A stretch of DNA of 64,000 nucleotides from Escherichia coli (GCF_001677475.2 NZ_CP015229.1); one strand, 5' to 3'; counted from the stretch's first letter, positions 3,853 to 48,627 are shown. Notes: a model not told the origin generated them from the sequence alone. Program-made: numbers and translations.

Positions 3853-4060
3853 CGATTTACCTCACTTCATCGCTTTCAGCGTATAACAGCATGTTAGTGA
3901 TAATGATTATCAGTTCAACCCAGCAAACGCAGGGGCTTTACCGTAAAACATGCTTTTTTCCTGCTTTTAATAAGCATAGACCCTGATGTGTGGGTTAACA
4001 GGCACGCTAAGAATTAGGTATCTCATTGTTAGATAATGATTATTATCTAAGGAGCATTAA
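3853..4060. promoter_or_regulatory. suf operon promoter/regulatory region with Fur-box-like motifs
   Basis: GATAATGATTATC at 3899..3911 and GATAATGATTATTATC at 4032..4047 resemble the Fur box consensus; the suf promoter is known to be Fur/IscR/OxyR regulated. Confidence 0.6.
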
Positions 4061-4400
4061 GGCTGTGATGAAAAAGAAAAAGTTGTATTGAAAATGACTA
4101 TTTAAGAGATAGGTAAAAAAGTGCAGCGTTCAGAAATAAGAAAACCCTTAAGTCTGTGCGACACAGGCTTAAGGGTTTCTACCCCATCCGGCGCTTATCT
4201 CCGGCACTCTCAGTGGCTTAGCTCTTGAAGGGGCGATAAGAATAATCTCATAAAGCTAACCCGCCGTTTTAACACAAACTGCGATTAGTATTATTTTTGA
4301 ACAATATCAGGCGGGTAGATAAGCAGTATTAAGAAGGCCATCGAACCTGGACGGAGATTAATCCAGGTCGATATGGCGAACTTGCGGCATTAAGTCAGGA

Positions 4401-4589
4401 TCAATGCACGCCCAGACGCCAGGCAAAGTAGATTTCTTCTTTTAATTCAGCAGAAGAGAGAGTAAGCAGGTCAGCAAATTCAAGTTCTAGTTGTTTCAGA
4501 CGTTTGAGATATTGGGCAGGTGAAAGATTGCTCTGGTCACGGCGTAAAAATTCAATGGCCAGCTGGGTGGGATCAAGTTGAGTAGACAT
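4401..4589 (-). CDS. ydiH: small conserved protein YdiH
   Basis: ORF 4401..4670; start set at internal Met (MSTQLDPTQLAIEF) giving 62 aa; synteny between suf and menI. Confidence 0.75.
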   Translation of the reverse strand: MSTQLDPTQLAIEFLRRDQSNLSPAQYLKRLKQLELEFADLLTLSSAELKEEIYFAWRLGVH

Positions 4590-4688
4590 AGCATCCTCGC
4601 TTTTAGACAAGACCTGCACAGTATACCACCGTTTACTGTGCAGATAATGACCAAAAGCAATATGCGTCACACTTTTCTGGTGACAACG

Positions 4689-5099
4689 TCACAAAATGGC
4701 GGTCGTTAATCGTGACGAACAGCACAAACGCCCTTTCTCATCGAAGATTTCAATCTGCCAGACCTGGTGACGCGAACCGAGATGCAACGGTTTGCATACG
4801 CCGCGCACCCGCCCTTCTCGTGCCGAGCGGACGTGGTTAGCATTGATTTCCAGACCAACTACCTTTTGCTCACCTTCGGTACATAAATAACCGGCAACGG
4901 AACCGATACTTTCGGCCAGTACCACGGATGCCCCTCCATGCAGCAACCCGAAAGGCTGCTTTGTCCGCGAGTCTACTGGCATTGTCGCTTCAAGGGTGTC
5001 ATCACCAATATGTTCAAAGCGAATATCCAGTAACCCCACCATGTTTCCTTCACCCATGGCATTCAGTGCTTCCAGGGTGATTTTTCGTTTCCATATCAT
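4689..5099 (-). CDS. menI: 1,4-dihydroxy-2-naphthoyl-CoA hydrolase (hotdog-fold thioesterase)
   Basis: 136-aa ORF; hotdog thioesterase-like; synteny (ydiI position). Confidence 0.85.
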   Translation of the reverse strand: MIWKRKITLEALNAMGEGNMVGLLDIRFEHIGDDTLEATMPVDSRTKQPFGLLHGGASVVLAESIGSVAGYLCTEGEQKVVGLEINANHVRSAREGRVRGVCKPLHLGSRHQVWQIEIFDEKGRLCCSSRLTTAIL

Positions 5100-35344: not shown

Positions 35345-35758
35345 TCAGATTCCCTCCCAAACTATATATCCTTTGTCTCTTGCCCAACAAACAACTGTGT
35401 GGGCTGTATATGTGGATGTGAAGCCGCAATAAGAACATGACACTTCATACCGAGTATTGTAGATGTTAATGGGCTCGTTCTCCTTGTGTATGGGAGTGAC
35501 ATATTCCCAATCATTTGAATCATCATAATCATCAAGTTCAGGGTCTGTGCCGTGAACAACCGTATGTGGAATAAACAAATCTAGGCGCCCACACGAGAGA
35601 CAAGAGGTTCTGGCTCCTCTATCTTTAAGGAATTGAATAAATAATTTGGGCGAAATCTGTTGCAGAACCTGCAAATGCCCACGTTCATTATCATTAAGAG
35701 ACCTGTCTGCATATGGAAAATCATCAAATTTAAGAGGCTTCATATAAGGCATCTCCAA
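35345..35758 (-). CDS. zinc-ribbon-containing protein of unknown function
   Basis: 137-aa ORF with CLSCG...CSYCG Cys pairs; overlaps int 3' end and abuts the next ORF (operon-like); alternative start 35743. Confidence 0.5.
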   Translation of the reverse strand: MEMPYMKPLKFDDFPYADRSLNDNERGHLQVLQQISPKLFIQFLKDRGARTSCLSCGRLDLFIPHTVVHGTDPELDDYDDSNDWEYVTPIHKENEPINIYNTRYEVSCSYCGFTSTYTAHTVVCWARDKGYIVWEGI

Positions 35759-36722
35759 GGGGATTAAATCTCACCGCATCCTGCAGGTAATCCGGCGCAA
35801 GATGGGCATAAATCATCGTTGTCTGAATCTTTGCGTGCCCCAGAATTTTCTGGAGCGTCAGAATATTGCCGCCGTTCATCATGAAATGACTGGCGAAGGT
35901 GTGGCGCAGCGCATGAACAGCCTGGCCGTCAGGAACATCAGGTGCGACCGTTTTGATGACATCGCGAACCAATGGATAATCCAGCGTCGGAAACACCAGT
36001 TTCCCGCCCCGTTTTTTGATCTTTTCAAACAGGCTTTCAGAAATAGGAACGGTACGGTTTTTGCTGTTCTTCGTTTTTGAAAAAGTGATTCGACAATGAA
36101 GAACACGGCGCTGCTCCAGTGCCGCTACCTCGCCCCATCGCGCCCCGGTCGACAGAAGGATTTCGACAGCCAGCCGTTCATCGGGATTTTCAGCCAGTGC
36201 ATCCAGCAACTGAACACATTCAGACTTACTCAGATATCCCATTTCGCGCTCGTTAACCTTCATTCCTTTAAGGCCTTGAACGGGGTTATCGTTAAGAAAA
36301 TGGCCGGATGAGATGAGTGCGGTAAACATCGCGCTTAACGCCCCAATCTCTCGATTTATGGTGCTGGGCTGTATCCCCTGCTCTATCCTGGACACACGTA
36401 GCTCGGTGAGCATCGTTGTATTAAGTTTATGCACGCACGGGTCATCCATTGCCTCACTCAAGCGCAGCAATTTAAGGCGCGTGTTATGCCCTGACTTCAT
36501 TAGCTGGCCGTGGTATTTCCACCACAAGTCAATAAGCACCGACAGCGGACGGCGATCAATGGAGTTTCCTTTCCACTCATTGTTATGCTGTTGCGCCAGC
36601 ACCCACCGCTCATATAAAACTGCATCCGATTTCGTTTTAAATTTTTTGCGAATGCGTTTGCCTTTACGCCCCTCCGGGCGCATGTCAAGAAGATACCCTC
36701 CCGGAATTGATTTTATGCTCAT
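35730..36722 (-). CDS. tyrosine integrase, P2 Int-like
   Basis: ORF 35730..36872; start set at internal Met (MSIKSIPGGYLLDMRPEGRKGKRIRKKF) by resemblance to P2 Int N-terminus; C-terminal catalytic region TGARWGE...HALRHTFASHFMMNGG...LGH...IYAH. Confidence 0.9.
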   Translation of the reverse strand: MSIKSIPGGYLLDMRPEGRKGKRIRKKFKTKSDAVLYERWVLAQQHNNEWKGNSIDRRPLSVLIDLWWKYHGQLMKSGHNTRLKLLRLSEAMDDPCVHKLNTTMLTELRVSRIEQGIQPSTINREIGALSAMFTALISSGHFLNDNPVQGLKGMKVNEREMGYLSKSECVQLLDALAENPDERLAVEILLSTGARWGEVAALEQRRVLHCRITFSKTKNSKNRTVPISESLFEKIKKRGGKLVFPTLDYPLVRDVIKTVAPDVPDGQAVHALRHTFASHFMMNGGNILTLQKILGHAKIQTTMIYAHLAPDYLQDAVRFNPLGDALYEAS

Positions 36723-36771
36723 TCGTGAAACCCCAGCGTTACAAGACCACCATGCCCCCAGCGCTCCATGA

Positions 36772-37083
36772 TTAGCCGGGCTGTGTGCCAGTCTTGCGGG
36801 GTTTTTGAGAAGGCGATGTGCTTTTTGGCCCATCAGGGGAGAGAGACGGACTGATCTGCCCAGCAGCCTCATTTGTTTCGTTACTCATCAACCACGTGGT
36901 GTATTTTTTAAAGTTCGGATGCATTGTGATTTTCAGTAAAACCTCCGTCCCCACACCTCTAATACCAGTCTCATATTGCTTAACTGTACCAACCGCAATA
37001 CCTATTGAATCCGCGAACTTTGCCTGGCTAAGTCCCTCAGATTCTCGAATTGCTTTTAGCTTCTTTGATATCTCTATTGACAT
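36772..37083 (-). CDS. P2 C-type immunity repressor (HTH, no peptidase domain)
   Basis: ORF 36772..37155; start set at MSIEISKK (ATG 37081-37083, AGG RBS); HTH plus motif KYTTWLMSNE...GQISPSL resembling P2 C. Confidence 0.75.
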   Translation of the reverse strand: MSIEISKKLKAIRESEGLSQAKFADSIGIAVGTVKQYETGIRGVGTEVLLKITMHPNFKKYTTWLMSNETNEAAGQISPSLSPDGPKSTSPSQKPRKTGTQPG

Positions 37084-40378: not shown

Positions 40379-40768
40379 ATGATTGACGCTCATGACTTCA
40401 CAAGATGGGTGCGCACACAGGACACCCGTCTGGCTCCCGTTCTTCAGGGATTATTTGATCTTTACATCCGTGGTCGTGACAACAGAGCACGCACTACAAA
40501 ACCGGAGAATGCGGACACCCTTTATTTCACAGTAGACGACTGCTACCGCGTGGACTTCACACCACACGGGCTGGCGTTGCACTGCCTGACACCACACGGC
40601 GAATCACTGCTGGCGTATTACGACTCCCCGGCCTCCGTATTTGCGGCAATGCTGGCGCATCGCACTGCTGGCGGGTGTGCCTCGCTGAGTGAATACACCG
40701 CTGAATTTAACCGCCTTTCCGCCATCTTCTCGCAGGAGTGGCAGCGCGTGACGGGATACCAGCCATGA
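40379..40768 (+). CDS. phage early protein, unknown function
   Basis: 129-aa ORF; stop overlaps gpA start (ATGA). Confidence 0.5.
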   Translation: MIDAHDFTRWVRTQDTRLAPVLQGLFDLYIRGRDNRARTTKPENADTLYFTVDDCYRVDFTPHGLALHCLTPHGESLLAYYDSPASVFAAMLAHRTAGGCASLSEYTAEFNRLSAIFSQEWQRVTGYQP

Positions 40769-43605
40769 GTGAGTTTGCATGGAGCTGGAATGAACCACGG
40801 CCAGCCATTGATCCGGCCAGATTTACGGAGCGCAGGCAGGAAACTGAAACCGACCTGCAACGCGCCATCCGTTACTACCTTGAGGCAGACAAAAGGGCAC
40901 AGGAAGAACAGGAAGCGAAGGAAGAAGCCTTTTTCGCACAATCCACCGTGGGTAAAAAACTCATGGCATCCCTTGAGGAAGCCGGACAGCGTGAAAAGCT
41001 GGCACAGAGCATCATCAGTAAGCGCCGGGCAACAGAACAAGACACGGTAGCCCGTGCCTTTGCCACACTAAAGGCACTACCTGTTTATCTGCGTGAACCA
41101 CTGAGCCGCCACCTCTCTTTCCTGCGCAAAAAACAGGAAGCCGATCGCCGGAAAGGCAAAAAGAGCTGGCAGGCGGAACGCTATGCACGCGGAACCCTGC
41201 GCAAAATATTCGAACGTCTGGACCGCACCGACAGCCGCTGGCTGACACCGGGTTATCGCGCCCTTGCCGGACGCGAACGCCTGGACGATTTGCTTTACCT
41301 GCCGCAGCTCAACAAACACCAGATACAGACGCTGGCCACCATGACAGCGGCGATGTTCAGCAGCACCTTCGAAAAACTCTGCGATGGCTTTGGCGCGACT
41401 GATGGCGAGCTGACCATGGATGTAACGCTGAAGGCGTATCAGATGCTGGCCCGCATGGCGTTACACCTGCACGCCATGCCTCCGCATTATGACGTACTGA
41501 CAACAGACAAAGACCGGAGGAACGAACCAGACACAGAACTGCTGCCGGGCGCAATCCTTCGCCTGACCTGTGCGGAATGGTGGAAACGCAAACTGTGGCT
41601 GTTACGTTGCGAGTGGCGGGAAGAACAACTCCGAGCCGCCTGTCTGGTTTCCAGAAAAACATCGCCCTATCTGAGCCAGGACGCGTTAAGCGAGTTTCGC
41701 GCACAGCGCGAGAAAACACGCGATTTCCTGAAAAGTTTCATGCTGGAAAATGAAGACGGGTTCACGATTGATCTCGAGACGGTGTATTACGCGGGAGTAA
41801 GTAACCCGGTTCACCGTAAGGCAGAAATGATGGCCACCATGAAGGGACTGGAACTTCTGGCCGAAGCCCGTGGCGACAGAGCGGTGTTTCTGACCGTCAC
41901 CTGCCCGTCAAAATACCACGCAACAACGGAGAACGGTCATCCGAACCCCAAATGGAACGGGGCCACCATGCGCGACTCCAGCGATTACCTGGTTAACACG
42001 TTTTTTGCGGCGGTCCGCAAAAAACTGAACCGCGACGGCCTGCGCTGGTATGGCATCCGCACGGTGGAGCCTCACCATGACGGCACTGTGCACTGGCATA
42101 TGATGGTCTTTGCACATCCGGACGAGATTGAAACCATCGTGTCCCACGTCTGCGATATTGCCATTCAGGAGGACCGCCACGAGCTGGGCGATGACATAAC
42201 TCCGCGTTTTAAGGCGGAGTATGTCGACGGCTCAAAAGGCACACCAACCAGCTACATCGCCACCTACATCGGAAAGAACTTGGACAGCCGCGCCGTGGAT
42301 GGCATCGACCCGAAAACGGGCAAGCCACGCGTTGACCACGAAACCGGAAAATCAATGGCCGAGAGCGTGGAGCGCGCCATCGGCTGGGCGCGCCTTCACC
42401 GGGTCCGTCAGTTCCAGTTCTTTGGCATCCCCTCCCGTCAGGTGTGGCGTGAACTGCGCCGCCTTGCCAGCCAGATGGCACGCAATCCGGAAGGCCCGCA
42501 ACGGCTGAAAGATGATGCAATGGATGCGGTACTCGCTGCCGCCGATGCCGGGTGTTTTGCCACCTACATTGAAAAACAGGGTGGCGTGCTTGTTCCACGC
42601 AAGGACTACCTGATTCGCACCGCCTACGACCTCGCAGATGAGCTGAACGATTACGGCGAACAGAGCGTACAGATTTACGGGATCTGGTCACCACTCATCG
42701 GGGAATCCTCCCGTGTGTGCACGCATCCGGATAACTGGAAGTTGGTAAGACGTAAACCAGAACCGGAAGACAACGCCCACGAAAATGGTTTTGACCTTCA
42801 GGGCGGCCCTGCCGCCCCTTGGACTCGTGGCAATAACTGTCCCCGTGTACAGGAAACGGACAATAACGGGACAGAACTGCCGGAAGAACGGCCAGCACCG
42901 TGGCCGCAGCTCCCTGACGGCGTTGAAGTGAACGAATGGATGCGCTCACTGAAACAGCACGAACGCCGGGCGCTGATGCGTTCGCTTCGTGACAAACAGG
43001 CAAAAAACAGCAGTGATGAAATGCAGAGCTGGACACAGAGCCGCAAACAGCAGCGGCCTTTGCCTGATAACCACGAATTACTCGCTAAAGAATGGCGGGA
43101 GTCTGCTGAATCTCTCGGCCTGCATATCGGTGAACAACAGATGCAGCACCTGTTACGGGGCGGCAGCCTGTACGTTGACGGCAGCATCATTGCACCGCAG
43201 GGATTTGAAATTGTACGCAAACCGGATACCCGCCCGGACAGCCGAATCACGCAGCTCTGGCAGCGCCTGAGCCGTAATCATGGCGTAAGCAGCACGGAGA
43301 TCCGCCATAACCCGGTCGCCAGCTATCTGGCACAGCTGGGGGCATCAGACCCTGAAGTCGCCGCACGCCTGGCATCCACACTTCAGCAGGACCAGAACAC
43401 CATGAAAACACCCGTTACCGTGCTTTCTGACATGCTGCGCGCCATCCGCGACGCAGAGCACGCACAGAGAATCAGTGAAACCACTGAACGCGCCCGCCGC
43501 AAAGCAGACCTGCTGCGGGGTGGCCTGACCAGTGGAAACAAAAAACAGACAGAAACGGGACTCATGAATCCCGTAAATGAGCAAAAAACGCGCAGCGATA
43601 TATGA
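40765..43605 (+). CDS. rolling-circle replication initiator, P2 gpA-like, with long C-terminal extension
   Basis: ORF 40738..43605; start set at ATG 40765 (MSEFAWSW); HWHMMVF and ATYIGKN motifs typical of gpA-family nicking proteins; 946 aa. Confidence 0.8.
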   Translation: MSEFAWSWNEPRPAIDPARFTERRQETETDLQRAIRYYLEADKRAQEEQEAKEEAFFAQSTVGKKLMASLEEAGQREKLAQSIISKRRATEQDTVARAFATLKALPVYLREPLSRHLSFLRKKQEADRRKGKKSWQAERYARGTLRKIFERLDRTDSRWLTPGYRALAGRERLDDLLYLPQLNKHQIQTLATMTAAMFSSTFEKLCDGFGATDGELTMDVTLKAYQMLARMALHLHAMPPHYDVLTTDKDRRNEPDTELLPGAILRLTCAEWWKRKLWLLRCEWREEQLRAACLVSRKTSPYLSQDALSEFRAQREKTRDFLKSFMLENEDGFTIDLETVYYAGVSNPVHRKAEMMATMKGLELLAEARGDRAVFLTVTCPSKYHATTENGHPNPKWNGATMRDSSDYLVNTFFAAVRKKLNRDGLRWYGIRTVEPHHDGTVHWHMMVFAHPDEIETIVSHVCDIAIQEDRHELGDDITPRFKAEYVDGSKGTPTSYIATYIGKNLDSRAVDGIDPKTGKPRVDHETGKSMAESVERAIGWARLHRVRQFQFFGIPSRQVWRELRRLASQMARNPEGPQRLKDDAMDAVLAAADAGCFATYIEKQGGVLVPRKDYLIRTAYDLADELNDYGEQSVQIYGIWSPLIGESSRVCTHPDNWKLVRRKPEPEDNAHENGFDLQGGPAAPWTRGNNCPRVQETDNNGTELPEERPAPWPQLPDGVEVNEWMRSLKQHERRALMRSLRDKQAKNSSDEMQSWTQSRKQQRPLPDNHELLAKEWRESAESLGLHIGEQQMQHLLRGGSLYVDGSIIAPQGFEIVRKPDTRPDSRITQLWQRLSRNHGVSSTEIRHNPVASYLAQLGASDPEVAARLASTLQQDQNTMKTPVTVLSDMLRAIRDAEHAQRISETTERARRKADLLRGGLTSGNKKQTETGLMNPVNEQKTRSDI

Positions 43606-43650
43606 AGCGCGCACAAAACAGGCAAAAACGGGATTTTAGAATCCCGTAAA
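43554..43650. promoter_or_regulatory. twin palindromic operator-like sites flanking the putative parM promoter
   Basis: AACGGGACTCATGAATCCCGTAAA at 43554..43577 and AACGGGATTTTAGAATCCCGTAAA at 43627..43650, each an inverted repeat ACGGGA-N8-TCCCGT; TATAT between them. Confidence 0.5.
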
Positions 43651-43681
43651 CGATTAATTAATCAACATAAGGAAAAGCGAC

Positions 43682-44641
43682 ATGAAAATTTGTATCGACG
43701 ACGGCTCCACCAACATCAAGCTGGCATGGACTGAGAACGGCGAACGCCGCAACGCCATCAGCCCGAACAGCTTCAAGTCGGAATGGTCTGCGCCGTTCGG
43801 TGGCACGCAGCCCGCGAACTACATGCTTGATGGCGTGCGCTATGGTTTTGATCCGGTCAGCGATCGCTTTGTCCAGACGACCGACACGCAATACCAGTAC
43901 AGCGATGTGAATGTCATTGCCATTCATCACGCGCTGGTCAAATCAGGCATCACGCCACAGGAGGTGGATGTGGTTGTCACCCTGCCACTGAGCGAGTATT
44001 TCGACACAAACGCACAGCCGGACATGGCCAACATCAACCGCAAAAAAGCGAACGTTATGCGCCCGGTGGAGTACCAGAACGGCGAAGCATTCACTATCCG
44101 TAACGTGCGGGTTATGCCTGAATCCATTCCGGCTGGCTTTAAGGCACTGGCTGACATGAGTCCGTTTGAATCCCTGCTGATTGTAGATTTGGGCGGAACC
44201 ACGCTGGATGTGGCAAAGGTTCAGGGGCAACTGGCAGGTATCAGCCAGGTGTTTTGCGATCCACACGTAGGCGTTTCTCTGATGGCCGATGCCGTACTGT
44301 CGGTGATGGCCACTAACGGTATGCGCACCAGTCACCACATCGCCAATACCATTATCGAACATCGCCATAATGAAGCCTGGCTGCGCCAGCACATCCACAA
44401 TGACGCGCATTACGCCAGCCTGATGGAGGTTATTCGTGAAAAGGAAGAAACACTGAAACAACGCGTGATCCGCGCGCTGGCGGGTTTTTCGGGTTACGGG
44501 CGGGTGATGGTTGTCGGTGGAGGGGCGGAGATTGTGGCACCCGCTATCCGCGAAGCCTGCGGAGTTCATGCGACTTTCATCGCGGACGGGGTGCCACAGT
44601 TTGCTCTGGTTAATGGGCTGTACGCAATGGACAAGGAGTAA
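43682..44641 (+). CDS. actin-like ATPase, ParM/StbA family
   Basis: 319-aa ORF; motifs DDGSTNIKL, SPNSFK, YSDVNVIAIHHAL, MPESIPAG, DLGGTTLD, VVGGGAEI align with plasmid R1 ParM as I recall it. Confidence 0.85.
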   Translation: MKICIDDGSTNIKLAWTENGERRNAISPNSFKSEWSAPFGGTQPANYMLDGVRYGFDPVSDRFVQTTDTQYQYSDVNVIAIHHALVKSGITPQEVDVVVTLPLSEYFDTNAQPDMANINRKKANVMRPVEYQNGEAFTIRNVRVMPESIPAGFKALADMSPFESLLIVDLGGTTLDVAKVQGQLAGISQVFCDPHVGVSLMADAVLSVMATNGMRTSHHIANTIIEHRHNEAWLRQHIHNDAHYASLMEVIREKEETLKQRVIRALAGFSGYGRVMVVGGGAEIVAPAIREACGVHATFIADGVPQFALVNGLYAMDKE

Positions 44642-44645
44642 ACCA

Positions 44646-44957
44646 ATGACGACACCAACCAGACGGATAAGTTTCTATCTGAAGCCTGCGGCCGTCAAGA
44701 ACGAAAGCGAAGCATGCGCCTGGCTGGACAGCCTTACACCAGAAGCCCGCAAAAGCGGCCAACGCGTGGCTTTTCTGGCCGGGCTGGCACTTCTGAAAAT
44801 GAATCCGGCAGAGGCTTACCGACTGGCTGCATGGGCTGACGATGAGGCGTTATCAGTGACACAAACCAGGACAGAATGCCCCGCGTCACAGCCAGTATCA
44901 ACCGCACAGATAACCAGTCAGATGGCCGGAAATATCCGGGCGTTATTTCCCGAATAA
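44646..44957 (+). CDS. ParR-like centromere-binding/repressor protein
   Basis: ATG 44646 with GGAG RBS, 103 aa; RRISFYLKP...AWLDSLTPEARKSGQRVAFLAGLAL resembles R1 ParR N-terminal RHH region; immediately downstream of parM-like gene. Confidence 0.7.
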   Translation: MTTPTRRISFYLKPAAVKNESEACAWLDSLTPEARKSGQRVAFLAGLALLKMNPAEAYRLAAWADDEALSVTQTRTECPASQPVSTAQITSQMAGNIRALFPE

Positions 44958-44962
44958 CACAA

Positions 44963-44990
44963 CATCAGGGCGCATCCGCCCTGATGACTT
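44963..44990 (+). terminator. putative terminator after parR-like gene
   Basis: 10-bp stem CATCAGGGCG/CGCCCTGATG with 4-nt loop, followed by short T-rich stretch. Confidence 0.4.
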
Positions 44991-45020
44991 TAATCCGGGA
45001 ACATAAACAAGGGGGACACA

Positions 45021-45356
45021 ATGCAACACATTGACAGAGAAAAAGCGCAGCGACTGATTGAGCGAATGGAAGCGCTGGCGAAAGAAGAAAATGTCAACAT
45101 CCAAAAAATAGCTGAATGTGGCCAGATAGTTCTTCGTCGTGAAAAAGACATCAAGCAACTGATGTCTGGCGAAATCAGCAAAACATGGACTTCAGGCAAG
45201 AAGACGATTTATTGCAGCTTCTGCAATAAATCCCAGCACGAAGTCATAAAGGTGATTGCCGGACCGTCTGTTTACATCTGCAATGAGTGCGTGGATTTGT
45301 GCAATGAAATTATCAGAAGAGAAGTGACAGACCATGAAGAAAAAACGCATGAATGA
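45021..45356 (+). CDS. ClpX-type C4 zinc-binding-domain protein (novel N-terminal helical region fused to ClpX-like ZBD)
   Basis: 111-aa ORF, GGGGGA RBS; residues [38 protein letters not shown] closely match E. coli ClpX N-domain (about 32 of 39 residues by my recollection); no AAA+ module. Confidence 0.8.
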
Positions 45357-45943
45357 CGAATTTGACGGCTTTTAATTTTATCGGGGCACACTGTCTCCCC
45401 CCGCACGAGGAAAACACGATGAAAAAATACGAATACATGCTAATGAAAGAAGCACTGCGGGCTGGTCTGGCTCCCTGTCCTGTATCCGTAGAAGCTGTTG
45501 TTGGGAACACGATTTTCCGAACGCTGCGAAATCGCGTATCCGTGAAGATGATTCACCAACCACCCAAATCTACCAGCATGATCTATCTGCCGCTGCCCGA
45601 GGCTATCAAACTTATGCGTTCGCTGAAATTTGCGATTTGGATGCAGACACAACTCAACAAAGCGGTGCAAAACACCTTCGTTAAGAAACTGATGCCGGAG
45701 CTTGCTGCCAGATGTGCAAAATGTACCAGACCCGCACTTCAATTTGATCTGTCATTGATTCAACAAGCTACGGAGGCAGAACTGTACCGCCTGTCACCTC
45801 TCCATGATGTTCACACGGAAGCCTCAGAAATGTTCCGGCTCATGTTTCAATTTAATTTTGCCGTTCGACGCACACGCGTTCAGGTCAATCGCATGATGCA
45901 GGCGCAGGAAGAGCTGACGCAACACAAAGGAGGCAACCAGTGA
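45353..45943 (+). CDS. hypothetical protein, translationally coupled to ZBD gene
   Basis: ATG 45353 overlaps upstream stop (ATGA); alternative start ATG 45416 with GAGGAA RBS; no recognisable motif. Confidence 0.55.
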
Positions 45944-46464
45944 GCAAGATTGACTATCAGGCATTACGCGAACGCTATTCACCTGCGCCAGTACCGAAAT
46001 GCCCTATTTGCGGCGAGGAAATGTCAATTCAGCGAATATCTGGAGCACAGGTTGTTTATGCCTGCTCCGGTTATGGTGATGATGGAGATTTCAAAATTGG
46101 TCGAACTCTTGCCGACGAACATTATGAAAAATCGCGCGTAACAGTGTTGGATGTCGGGGATCCTGAAGTATTGGCGCTACTTGATTGGCTGGAAACTAAA
46201 GACAACCGAATCGCTGAACTGGAAAAAATCGCCACTGACTATGCACTTAAATTCCAGAAAGCACAGGACGCATTAAAGCATGCCGCTTTGCTGCATAGCC
46301 GGACGGCGCAACAAACAAATAATTTTGCAGTATCGCTTCCGGACATAAGCGAATATTTCATTAATGACGTATTTCAGCCCTTGCGATACGAGCGGGATGT
46401 TGAAAGAGCCATCATAAAGGCTGGCGGAAAAGCATTGTGGCAGGAGAAACACGACGACAGATAA
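45940..46464 (+). CDS. hypothetical protein with N-terminal Cys-rich (zinc-ribbon-like) segment
   Basis: GTG start overlapping upstream stop (GTGA) with AGGAGG RBS; CPICGEE...YACSG; 174 aa. Confidence 0.55.
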   Translation: MSKIDYQALRERYSPAPVPKCPICGEEMSIQRISGAQVVYACSGYGDDGDFKIGRTLADEHYEKSRVTVLDVGDPEVLALLDWLETKDNRIAELEKIATDYALKFQKAQDALKHAALLHSRTAQQTNNFAVSLPDISEYFINDVFQPLRYERDVERAIIKAGGKALWQEKHDDR

Positions 46465-46516
46465 AAATAACACCTGATCTCCCTCAAACCAGGGCGATAA
46501 TCGCGCATCGCCCTGC

Positions 46517-46543
46517 TGCACAATAGTGCACAAATTTGCACAA
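46517..46543. repeat. three TGCACAA direct repeats at exact 10-bp phasing
   Basis: TGCACAA at 46517, 46527 and 46537; helical-turn periodicity suggests protein binding on one DNA face. Confidence 0.6.
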
Positions 46544-46614
46544 TTTTTTTGAACGACTTTTTGCCCTTCCGGCCCGCGTGGCGGCTGGATCCGTCAAGGA
46601 TCCGTGCGTGCACA

Positions 46615-46630
46615 AAAAAACGCGTTTTTT
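46615..46630. other. perfect palindrome AAAAAACGCGTTTTTT inside phage non-coding block
   Basis: Seen directly; preceded by GGATCCGT direct repeats at 46587 and 46598 and followed by G-rich segment. Confidence 0.6.
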
Positions 46631-46914
46631 CTGCGCGCAGGTGACGGGGGAACAGCCCGCGTTTCAGGGGGTAAATAGCGTTCCCTTAACGATGTCGCAG
46701 CGACACGACAGAATGGCCGTATCGCTCACGCTGAGCGTGAAAAATACGTGAGGGATTCTGATTTGATGGGGTGAAAGGTAAGGCCGTCAAAATCGCACTG
46801 AGGCGGCGAGAACATGCAGTCAGCGCGGTGGGATTGTGTAGAGTCTGGCCGTCGATGATAGCGATAAGTCGGAAGATGTCGTGAAATTATCTGATTGATA
46901 CGGGAGCTGGAGAG

Positions 46915-46941
46915 CCGGGGCATAAATTTTTTATGCCCCGG
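46915..46941. other. perfect 12-bp-stem hairpin CCGGGGCATAAA-ttt-TTTATGCCCCGG
   Basis: Seen directly; no flanking U tract on either strand so not a classical intrinsic terminator. Confidence 0.6.
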
Positions 46942-47041
46942 CGAAGCAGCAGACAAGCGAAGCGCGTCAGTGATGCGGCACCTTGCCGACCACACTTCAT
47001 AAGTGCAAAATACGAGCAAAGAAATCAATGGAGGCTGTTTT

Positions 47042-47566
47042 ATGGTCATTAATTACAAGCAGTTACGAGAAAAACGAGAGCAGGTAAAGGAAAGTTTTCG
47101 CCGCAATGAAGATCTGACCCCGCTTGTACACCTTGCCCAGGGAATTGTTGATGCTTATGAAATCTCTCTGGAGCTGCCATCACAGACATGGACGGATAGC
47201 GACGGTAATCGCCAGCATTACGTTTCATGCGGACTGGAAACAACTGAAGGGTTTCGCAGAATGCCTTTATCTCAGATTCCTGCCGCTACCCCCAAAGCAA
47301 GGGGCGGCAATGATGAGCGAAAACTGATTTTCAGCATTGAGACAGTGGTTGACGACACACCTGGCGAAGTCGCGTTCGTGCATACTCCTCTTTCGATCGC
47401 AATGTATAACGATGAAATACAGGTTCGCGTTAATAATAATATCGTGCCACTTAAAGAAGGTAATTCACCATACACCACCGTTTGTGAAGCCATTCAATAT
47501 TACGTTCTCTCTGAAATTGATAATCTCAAGCCTGACGGCACCCAGAAAATGGTTCAACTCTGGTAA
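47042..47566 (+). CDS. hypothetical protein (orphan gene between non-coding block and portal gene)
   Basis: ATG 47042 with GGAGG RBS (ORF track 47003..47566); followed by strong terminator. Confidence 0.55.
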   Translation: MVINYKQLREKREQVKESFRRNEDLTPLVHLAQGIVDAYEISLELPSQTWTDSDGNRQHYVSCGLETTEGFRRMPLSQIPAATPKARGGNDERKLIFSIETVVDDTPGEVAFVHTPLSIAMYNDEIQVRVNNNIVPLKEGNSPYTTVCEAIQYYVLSEIDNLKPDGTQKMVQLW

Positions 47567-47572
47567 AAAGGA

Positions 47573-47597
47573 CAGCCCCATCACGGGGCTGTTTTTT
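47573..47597. terminator. bidirectional intrinsic terminator between convergent orfZ and portal gene
   Basis: Stem CAGCCCC/GGGGCTG followed by T6 on plus strand and T-rich tract on minus strand; portal stop codon lies in the loop. Confidence 0.7.
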
Positions 47598-48627
47598 CAT
47601 CAAGAAGAGCATAAGAATTAAAACGGATCACCTCTTCGCCAAGCCAGTCATTGATATGCTTCATAGCCTCCATGACGGGCATCAGCTCGTTAATTGCGTA
47701 AACCCGCGCGGCCTTCTCCACATCACCAAACGCACTTTTTTCACCCGGCATCGCCCCCATCAGTTGCGGCGGAACGCGGTGCGCAGCCAGCACATCATCA
47801 CGGGATGCCGCCTTAACATTCATGAACTCATCCTTTGCGGTGATCTGCTGGAACGGCAAAATTTGCACCCCCTCTTTGCCCCCGTTGGGCGCATGAATGA
47901 GCACGTTTTTAAACGCACCACCACCACGCGCACCCTGTAGCGTTTCTTTCAGGGAGTCCATGCTTTCGCGGTTTACCTGCGCTGCACCGATGTAGATGAT
48001 GCACCCGGCGTGGGATCCGTTGTCGTAATACAGTTTTCTGAACATGTCCGCCGAATGAGACAGGCTGGCCGAGAGTAATGCGCCGAGATATTCCGGCATG
48101 CCGTAGATTTCCTGGTTAATGTCAGGATTCATCAGGTGGCACACTTTGCTTGGGCGAAACTGAAACGCGTCCTTGCCATCCTGCACATACCACCATGATT
48201 CAAGATCGCTTCCGCGTCGCATGTATTTCGCCAGGGCGTGCCGTAATTTAAGCGGTTCGCCGAGCATATTGCTTCGAAGCTCAAGGAATGCGTTACCGAA
48301 CACAAACCAGTCCAGCGCCAGCGCCGAGAAATCCTGCCGGGAAAGCAGCGGGTGCGGGATGTAGCAACCGAGTAATACATTGCGCTTAAAGTAAAGCGCA
48401 GACTGATGCCAGGACGTTTGCCGGGCAGCTCTTGCCAGACCGTACCAGTCCACCGGGGTTTCATACCACCGCCCGTTATCAGCACAGTACATATTGTCCA
48501 GCAGGTCATGCCCGGTCAGGCGATAAGGACCATCAAATGTGAATGCACTGAGCGATGATTCTTTCCTGAGCGCATCAGCGAGATCAATGCGTGAACTCAT
48601 GCGCACTTTTTTATTTTTTCTGCTCAT
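47581..48627 (-). CDS. portal protein, P2 gpQ-like
   Basis: 348-aa ORF, leftward, immediately downstream of terminase ATPase gene with ATGA overlap; size and position as P2 Q. Confidence 0.75.
   Translation of the reverse strand: MSRKNKKVRMSSRIDLADALRKESSLSAFTFDGPYRLTGHDLLDNMYCADNGRWYETPVDWYGLARAARQTSWHQSALYFKRNVLLGCYIPHPLLSRQDFSALALDWFVFGNAFLELRSNMLGEPLKLRHALAKYMRRGSDLESWWYVQDGKDAFQFRPSKVCHLMNPDINQEIYGMPEYLGALLSASLSHSADMFRKLYYDNGSHAGCIIYIGAAQVNRESMDSLKETLQGARGGGAFKNVLIHAPNGGKEGVQILPFQQITAKDEFMNVKAASRDDVLAAHRVPPQLMGAMPGEKSAFGDVEKAARVYAINELMPVMEAMKHINDWLGEEVIRFNSYALLDEKTAP

Follow-up and report, generated by a model that had tools for sequence, protein, structure and literature searches.

What would a temperate phage gain from encoding, on its own, the docking domain of a host unfoldase? 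The question is raised by a short plus-strand gene, hereafter the ZnF gene, in the window, by which we mean the whole 64,000-nt stretch of Escherichia coli DNA that was analyzed (GCF_001677475.2, NZ_CP015229.1). The preliminary description had read positions 45021-45356 as a phage-borne gene for a protein that carries a stand-alone ClpX zinc-binding domain (ZBD) at residues ~60-100, lacks the AAA+ module and has a novel helical N-terminal half. Each of these points is borne out by the results below. The elements of the gene are the following.

45010..45016, plus strand: Shine-Dalgarno sequence AGGGGGA, 5 nt before the ATG of the ZnF gene, read directly from the sequence
45021..45356, plus strand: ORF of the stand-alone ClpX-ZBD protein (ZnF gene), stop included; ATG start, 111 aa, phrog_6797 match, WP_047657269.1
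45021..45170, plus strand: family-specific N-terminal helical hairpin, residues 1-50 (predicted helices 6-22 and 27-49), from AF2 pLDDT and a profile search
45171..45206, plus strand: low-confidence linker, residues 51-62, of varying length across the family (pLDDT ~52; indel-rich alignment block)
45207..45323, plus strand: C4 ZBD, residues 63-101, from Pfam PF06689, PDB sequence matches, Foldseek and the invariant cysteines
45213-45215, 45222-45224, 45279-45281 and 45288-45290, plus strand: codons of the Zn ligands C65, C68, C87 and C90

The C-terminal half of the protein matches PF06689 (zf-C4_ClpX) over residues 64-99 (62.2 bits, E=4.2e-17, model positions 2-38 of 39), and a phmmer search of all PDB chains returned ClpX entries as the only significant matches, with the E. 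coli entries 1OVX (E=2.3e-20), 2DS5 (7e-20) and full-length 8E91 (3e-19). The bit scores of the ZBD in this search, 72 for enterobacterial ClpX, 52 for Listeria ClpX and 26 for Neisseria ClpX, form a gradient that is consistent with an origin in a gammaproteobacterial host or with continued matching to such a host. The NCBIfam ClpX models (TIGR00382 / NF003745) score 50 bits, against cutoffs of 359-371, and are matched only at profile positions 3-53 of ~415; the AAA+ module is therefore absent, and the protein terminates 10 residues past the ZBD helix. Pairwise alignment with ClpX recovers the ligand pattern CxxC-18 residues-CxxC, with C65, C68, C87 and C90 corresponding to ClpX C14, C17, C36 and C39. 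On these profile and alignment matches we classify the protein as a bona fide zf-C4_ClpX member and not as a ClpX unfoldase.

An AF2 model built from an alignment of ten family members (mean pLDDT 79) contains helices at residues 6-22 and 27-49, a poorly defined linker, and a β-hairpin plus helix at residues 78-109. The ZBD part of this predicted structure aligns with 2DS5, 2DS6, 2DS7 and 2DS8 in Foldseek at 0.5-0.8 Å rmsd, with a target-normalized TM of 0.88-0.92 and ~80% identity, and superposition of the model on 2DS5 gives 0.6 Å. A ZBD fold, that is, a β-hairpin zinc ribbon followed by a C-terminal helix, is accordingly what is predicted for residues 63-101, and the modeled domain probably folds into a Zn-bound, dimerizing ZBD like that of ClpX. 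AF2 gave no confident arrangement of the helical hairpin relative to the ZBD (pTM 0.40), and a GGGGS-linked homodimer (mean pLDDT 57, pTM 0.40) likewise yielded no confident quaternary structure.

The N-terminal half has no counterpart in ClpX and is specific to this family. Its two helices are predicted with pLDDT values of 81-92 up to residue 40 and of 73 over residues 41-50, and a profile made from this half matched 18 proteins among 1.84 billion representative proteins, all of the same family; every intact protein among them that has the hairpin also has the ZBD at its C-terminus. Foldseek searches with the AF2 monomer gave no informative fold match for the hairpin in PDB or BFVD, where the ZBD half alone was matched. 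We also considered homology of the hairpin to an IraP-type anti-adaptor and rejected it, given an hhalign probability of 1.7%.

We compared the ZBD with K-12 clpX codon by codon. Over residues 60-105, 33/46 residues are identical but only 88/138 bases; differing codons are used at 21 of the 33 identical residues, and third positions agree at 18 of 46. Identity to ClpX measured in other ways is 32/42 over the ZBD core and 80% over 40 Foldseek-aligned columns. When the ZnF gene was used as a blastn query against 5,426 complete E. coli genomes, clpX itself was never retrieved. Because the residues match while the codons have fully diverged from those of clpX, the gene is an old capture kept by selection on the protein and not a recent duplicate, which agrees with the earlier argument from synonymous differences.

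Comparisons between subfamilies, in which synonymous sites are saturated, give dN values of 0.14-0.46 for the ZBD half and 0.45-0.95 for the hairpin half. Where it is measurable, the dN/dS of the ZBD is 0.07-0.25 in most comparisons; the close pair R41/D6, which differs by few substitutions, departs from every deeper comparison with a ratio of 0.98 for the ZBD half. In the PhiR41_1 allele (L004, 5823-6146; its D6 comparison is L005), the conserved Tyr that directly precedes the first Zn ligand is replaced by Cys (LCCSFC). Evolution of the ZBD half is 2-5 times slower than that of the rest of the protein, and the ZBD of most members has 62-83% identity to that of the host, these members being otherwise only 35-50% identical to one another. 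These substitution patterns indicate that the ZnF protein is under purifying selection.

What is retained extends beyond the spacing of the cysteines, a distinction on which the preliminary description had made its reading depend. The four Cys residues are invariant across 14 family members, bar a one-residue alignment shift in P0125, and at every hydrophobic position of the ZBD core, the interface and the C-terminal helix the protein has the ClpX residue or a conservative substitution. In ClpX numbering, Phe16 (Phe67 of the phage protein) is invariant in the 14 members and Ile46 (Ile97) is Ile or Val; Val24, Ile28, Ala29, Gly30, Val33, Ile35, Val40 and Ile47 are retained in 12-13 of the 14, as are the polar residues Lys19, Gln21, Glu38 and Asp41, the last as Asp or Glu. 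Systematic surface differences from ClpX comprise G18N, a variable residue at R25, D37N and D45E. Phe16 and Ile46 mark a hydrophobic patch to which lambda O and trigger factor bind and with which the docking site of SspB and RssB overlaps (PMC7804408).

The ZnF gene sits in a P2-like prophage of the Xuanwuvirus/P88 type, whose DNA shares 95-99% identity with Escherichia phage P88 and its relatives; P88 is a viable, mitomycin C-inducible phage whose genome paper makes no mention of the ZnF gene (PMC5285337). The gene lies in the interval between gpA and gpQ, a cos-proximal diversity hotspot (Rousset et al. 2022, PMC9122126). The prophage around it is laid out as follows.

35730-36872, minus strand: integrase
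40738..43605, plus strand: P2 gpA-type replication endonuclease, left anchor of the hotspot
43682-44641, plus strand: ParM, partition module
44646-44957, plus strand: ParR-like protein, partition module
44958..45356, plus strand: single-gene cassette of 399 bp (hairpin, Shine-Dalgarno sequence and ORF), from alignment with E. coli A0 34/86
44963..44986, plus strand: 10-bp GC-rich RNA hairpin between the parR stop and the ZnF gene, within the cassette (RNA fold -20.5 kcal/mol, z = -3.2)
45419-45943, plus strand: 174-aa hypothetical protein, also found in prophages without the ZnF gene
45940-46464, plus strand: ead/Ea22-like protein, also found in prophages without the ZnF gene
47581..48627, minus strand: portal protein gpQ, right anchor of the hotspot

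The portal and terminase genes lie on the opposite strand and are followed by capsid and tail genes. The same locus holds the known P2 hotspot cargo old, tin, ParMR and others, and about 1/4 of P2-like phages carry a putative partition system there, for which maintenance in a plasmid state has been speculated (PMC9122126). The survey includes arrangements of this kind in its supplementary Table S5A, for example 'StbA + Plasmid_stab_B + zf-C4_ClpX + hypothetical', and its main text does not mention ClpX; among the curated or tested systems consulted the arrangement was not found, and no activity is reported for it (PMC9122126). A search of PADLOC-DB v2 gave no match for ParM, ParR, the ZnF protein, the 174-aa protein or the Ea22-like protein.

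Several features of the neighboring DNA are recorded here in their own right. The ParM/ParR (StbA/Plasmid_stab_B) module is complete within this integrated prophage, and other carriers of the ZnF family include phage-plasmids. A 42-nt direct repeat is present in two copies that are 81% identical and lie 73 nt apart, at 43539-43580, in the 3' end of gpA, and at 43612-43653, just upstream of parM; each copy contains a palindrome with 8-bp arms (ACGGGAyT....rAATCCCGT), and the pair looks like a parC-type centromere or operator for ParMR. Further downstream, a plus-strand ORF at 47003-47566 (phrog_5091) occupies the space that separates the presumed cos region from the portal gene, and after it comes a strong bidirectional terminator hairpin (47572-47592) that is common to the end of the portal gene.

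Pairwise alignment with the collinear prophage of E. coli A0 34/86, from which the ZnF gene is missing, resolves the 399-bp cassette as a precise insertion directly after the parR stop, with microhomology (GAATAA/GAATGA) at its junctions. Its GC content is 42-46%, versus 55-58% in gpA and parM. The ZnF gene is a real, expressed-looking, autonomous single-gene accessory cassette of a P2-like temperate phage.

How the cassette may be transcribed is hinted at by its surroundings. A promoter scan predicted no sigma-70-like promoter upstream of the ZnF gene on the plus strand of the hotspot, where the sole such prediction falls at 47412-47440, ~2 kb downstream of the gene. The gene order, the lack of a predicted promoter of its own and the Ea22-type neighbors suggest that the gene is co-expressed with the early or accessory set; in lysogens, transcription could alternatively start from a ParR-regulated promoter in front of parM. 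The RNA hairpin at 44963-44986 is not a canonical terminator, because the U-tract on the plus strand is weak, and may possibly act as a weak terminator, an attenuator or an RNA stabilizer. No Rfam match was found over 43000-48000, this hairpin included.

To place the ZnF gene among its relatives, we turned to phage, plasmid and genome collections. The full-length match of the protein to PHROG 6797 (E=7.6e-57) pairs residues 1-105 with profile positions 5-106 of 107; identical copies of the protein are present on 308 contigs, and the full-length ORF is intact on hundreds of contigs. RefSeq/PGAP names WP_047657269.1 (100% DNA identity) a 'ClpX C4-type zinc finger protein', and many GenBank homologues are misnamed 'carboxylate--amine ligase', such as those of P88 (KP063541, 10195-10527) and D6 (NC_050154, 78777-79097), a name for which the sequence gives no support. 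Because RefSeq already names the gene and the hotspot survey already catalogues the arrangement, the gene is no discovery of an unannotated object. Named members come only from Escherichia (coli, albertii, marmotae) or Salmonella enterica. By blastn, phage or plasmid homologues are present in 220 of the 5,426 complete E. coli genomes; the P88-type gene is found in ~2% of complete E. coli genomes, and the plasmid type in a similar number.

Across a range of 35-98% identity the architecture of the ZnF family is conserved, and its subgroups differ in genomic setting. P88-type members are 87-98% identical and show the order gpA-ParM-ParR-ZnF-portal in 31 of 31 IMG/VR loci. A subgroup at 71-75% identity sits between a 50%-identical gpA and the portal gene, without ParMR, and several subgroups at 35-46% occupy the same gpA-portal interval of P2-like prophages that have a gpA of only 31-49% identity. 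Members at ~50% are borne by phage-plasmids, both P1-like (phage D6) and ~108-kb SSU5-like (PhiR41_1, CMS-2020a), and in D6 and PhiR41_1 the gene overlaps its neighbors in a polycistronic array directly after an Ea22-like gene. A P88-type backbone (L070) holds a 39%-identical allele, so recombination also exchanges the ZnF gene.

Across the P2-like lineages, including at least 10 divergent ones, two features alone are constant: the gene shares its strand with gpA, and it closes the early (gpA) transcription unit at the distal end. What lies between gpA and ZnF varies by lineage (ParM/ParR, a Dam-like methyltransferase, a Ren-like protein, unknown ORFs), and the downstream genes also occur without ZnF, which together argue that there is no conserved partner gene. 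In four divergent P2-like prophages (L066, L079, L084 and L086, at about 3950-4930), a ~240-aa Dam-like (D12 class) DNA methyltransferase lies directly upstream of the ZnF homologue, and in L087 the methyltransferase is fragmented. Two apparent domain fusions among the plasmid-type IMG/VR copies, L068 4980-5828 (282 aa) and L069 5115-5822 (235 aa), were rejected as such: a frameshift after 'ICDEC' reads into the next ORF with loss of the ZBD helix, and both copies are probable pseudogenes.

ClpXP governs the stability of proteins that decide the fate of phages and plasmids, among them lambda O, TrfA, Mu transposase and repressor, antitoxins, sigma-S and SOS proteins. Taking the conserved surface and the genomic setting together, we propose that the 111-aa protein mimics the ClpX N-domain and competes for the adaptors and substrates that bind the ZBD, a reading to which we give an even chance. 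Its favored form is simple competition. The phage ZBD would present the same hydrophobic docking patch as ClpX and would compete with it for ZBD-docking partners, including SspB, RssB and UmuD as adaptors and, as substrates that depend on the N-domain, proteins like lambda O or MuA. ClpX(P) activity that relies on adaptors and on the N-domain would then be dampened while phage early or accessory genes are expressed, and the outcome could be protection of phage early proteins or stabilization of chosen host proteins. The helical hairpin may add specificity or avidity for a particular partner.

The patch expected of such a docking competitor is present in the ZnF family, with Phe67 invariant and position 97 restricted to Ile or Val. 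The isolated ClpX ZBD dimerizes and, supplied in trans at 5-20 uM, inhibits RssB-dependent degradation of sigma-S by 0.6 uM ClpXP (PMC7226468, Fig. 1d). Since this inhibition by the free ZBD in vitro requires roughly a 10-30-fold excess over ClpXP, a plain decoy would need to be abundant (PMC7226468), and a plain decoy also leaves the conserved hairpin unexplained. A search of the full-text literature found no functional study (binding, degradation or phenotype) of a stand-alone phage ZBD.

Among the alternatives, the strongest dispenses with ClpX. The ZBD might be merely a compact Zn-ribbon dimerization scaffold, with the hairpin carrying an unrelated activity, for instance in the control of how the phage replicates, is partitioned or decides between lysis and lysogeny. 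Phage regulators commonly include small Zn-ribbon proteins, and the hairpin is obligatory as well as conserved; in numerous P2-like lineages, moreover, the gene lies a short way downstream of gpA, and in phage-plasmids early genes of the Ea22-like type are close by. A scaffold, however, should drift like the rest of the protein, yet the ZBD half changes far more slowly; it also keeps the ClpX-specific surface residues Lys19, Gln21, Glu38 and Asp41 and the Phe16/Ile46 patch, at the level of host identity given above, and searches of the 111-aa protein against Pfam, PHROG and NCBIfam gave no further signal, for DNA binding or otherwise. We regard a ClpX-independent role as unlikely, if still a serious contender. 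Rather less probable, in our view, is that the phage ZBD pairs with the ZBD of ClpX itself and plants the hairpin on the ClpX ring, where the hairpin would recruit a specific cargo for degradation or remodeling, or would disable one ZBD dimer. Such an adaptor or poison subunit would fit the function of the ZBD as a dimerization domain (PMC7226468) and the identical or conservative hydrophobic positions of its core and C-terminal helix; the occurrence of ZBDs C-terminal to unrelated modules in other phage contigs (a 303-aa ParB-like protein in L085, short helical segments in L089 and L091) fits use as a docking tag. Against it, a homodimer is at least as likely because the interfaces are identical, the linked-homodimer model is not confident, and no conserved cargo candidate lies nearby. 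ZBD dimers are, moreover, reportedly stable, which would limit exchange with pre-assembled ClpX to newly made subunits.

A role in defense is improbable to a greater degree. Here the prophage-expressed ZBD would trap ClpX-dependent proteins of superinfecting phages, such as MuA or lambda O-like initiators, or would keep watch over ClpX and set off a response. Mu requires contacts with the ClpX N-domain for transpososome remodeling. The gpA-gpQ hotspot is rich in defense systems (PMC9122126). PADLOC nevertheless recognizes neither the ZnF protein nor its neighbors, these neighbors vary or also occur without ZnF and include no effector partner, and the gene is co-oriented with the early operon, has no predicted promoter of its own and is found again in early accessory arrays of phage-plasmids; the survey of Rousset et al. 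includes the arrangement in Table S5A and reports no activity for it (PMC9122126). The related suggestion in the preliminary description, that the protein senses a ClpX-interacting phage protein, found no support, as there is neither a PADLOC match nor a conserved effector neighbor and the gene moves as a single-gene cassette. That the gene is a functionless, decaying fragment of a captured clpX is hardly credible: it is short and low in GC, it sits in a hypervariable hotspot, and frameshifted or truncated copies do exist, but its ORF is intact on hundreds of contigs and its exact sequence present on 308, its ZBD has a dN/dS of about 0.1-0.25 where measurable, it has a strong Shine-Dalgarno sequence, and it belongs to a family of 35-98% identity with conserved architecture. 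This conservation pattern effectively refutes decay.

Returning to the N-domain mimic, comparison with known systems locates what would be new in it. The phage domain shares with the E. coli ClpX ZBD the fold of the predicted model, the C4 ligands, ~80% identity over 40 residues and the Phe16/Ile46 patch, and differs in that it has no AAA+ motor, is C-terminal to a novel hairpin, is encoded by phages and phage-plasmids and has fully diverged codons. T4 PinA and T7 Gp4.5 are phage inhibitors of the host protease Lon and exemplify the same concept, a phage early protein that tunes an ATP-dependent protease of its host; in contrast to the ZnF protein they concern another protease, are unrelated in sequence and copy no protease domain. 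Together with these inhibitors, the nearest functional analogues would be the anti-adaptors IraP, IraM and IraD, with which the ZnF protein would share its outcome should the decoy model hold; they are small proteins that block substrate delivery to ClpXP by competing at the adaptor/ZBD interface (PMC7226468). The ZnF protein has no homology to them, and whereas the Ira proteins bind RssB via folds of their own, the phage protein would copy the docking domain of ClpX.

Short ZBD-only proteins, also in early or accessory regions, are encoded by the Pseudomonas phages Alize (109 aa), BUCT566 and PP9W2 (65 aa; phrog_12435) and by Caulobacter phage Cr30. Unlike members of the ZnF family, these have the ZBD at the N-terminus and no hairpin, and they look like independent captures; on this comparison, stand-alone ZBDs occur in phages in several independent families, of which the ZnF family is one. 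A wider proposal, which we advance tentatively and would not yet call probable, is that enterobacterial temperate phages and, independently, Pseudomonas and Caulobacter phages use free ClpX docking domains as mimics that reprogram ClpXP substrate selection during infection, with the hairpin directing the ZnF-family mimic to one adaptor, one substrate or ClpX, and that together they would constitute a new class of viral protease modulators acting by domain mimicry.

With the gene name and arrangement already known, the point of interest is what ClpX docking domains carried by phages do biologically; the ZnF family is common, and stand-alone ZBDs recur in unrelated phages. A virus-encoded ClpX docking domain would be a simple and genetically tractable natural tool that switches off only the adaptor- and N-domain-dependent branch of ClpXP, and, if the proposal is true, it could account for the way in which some temperate phages and phage-plasmids shield their early proteins or steer the stress responses of the host. 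Were the protein instead to act independently of ClpX, it would merely be another small accessory protein.

Among the IMG/VR contigs, ZBDs were also found C-terminal to modules unrelated to the helical hairpin, namely in a 303-aa ParB-like protein (L085, 2400-3311) and in short helical proteins of 77-144 aa (L089, 4899-5132; L091, 4947-5198; L088, 4740-5174), which suggests that the ZBD is reused as a module in phage contigs.
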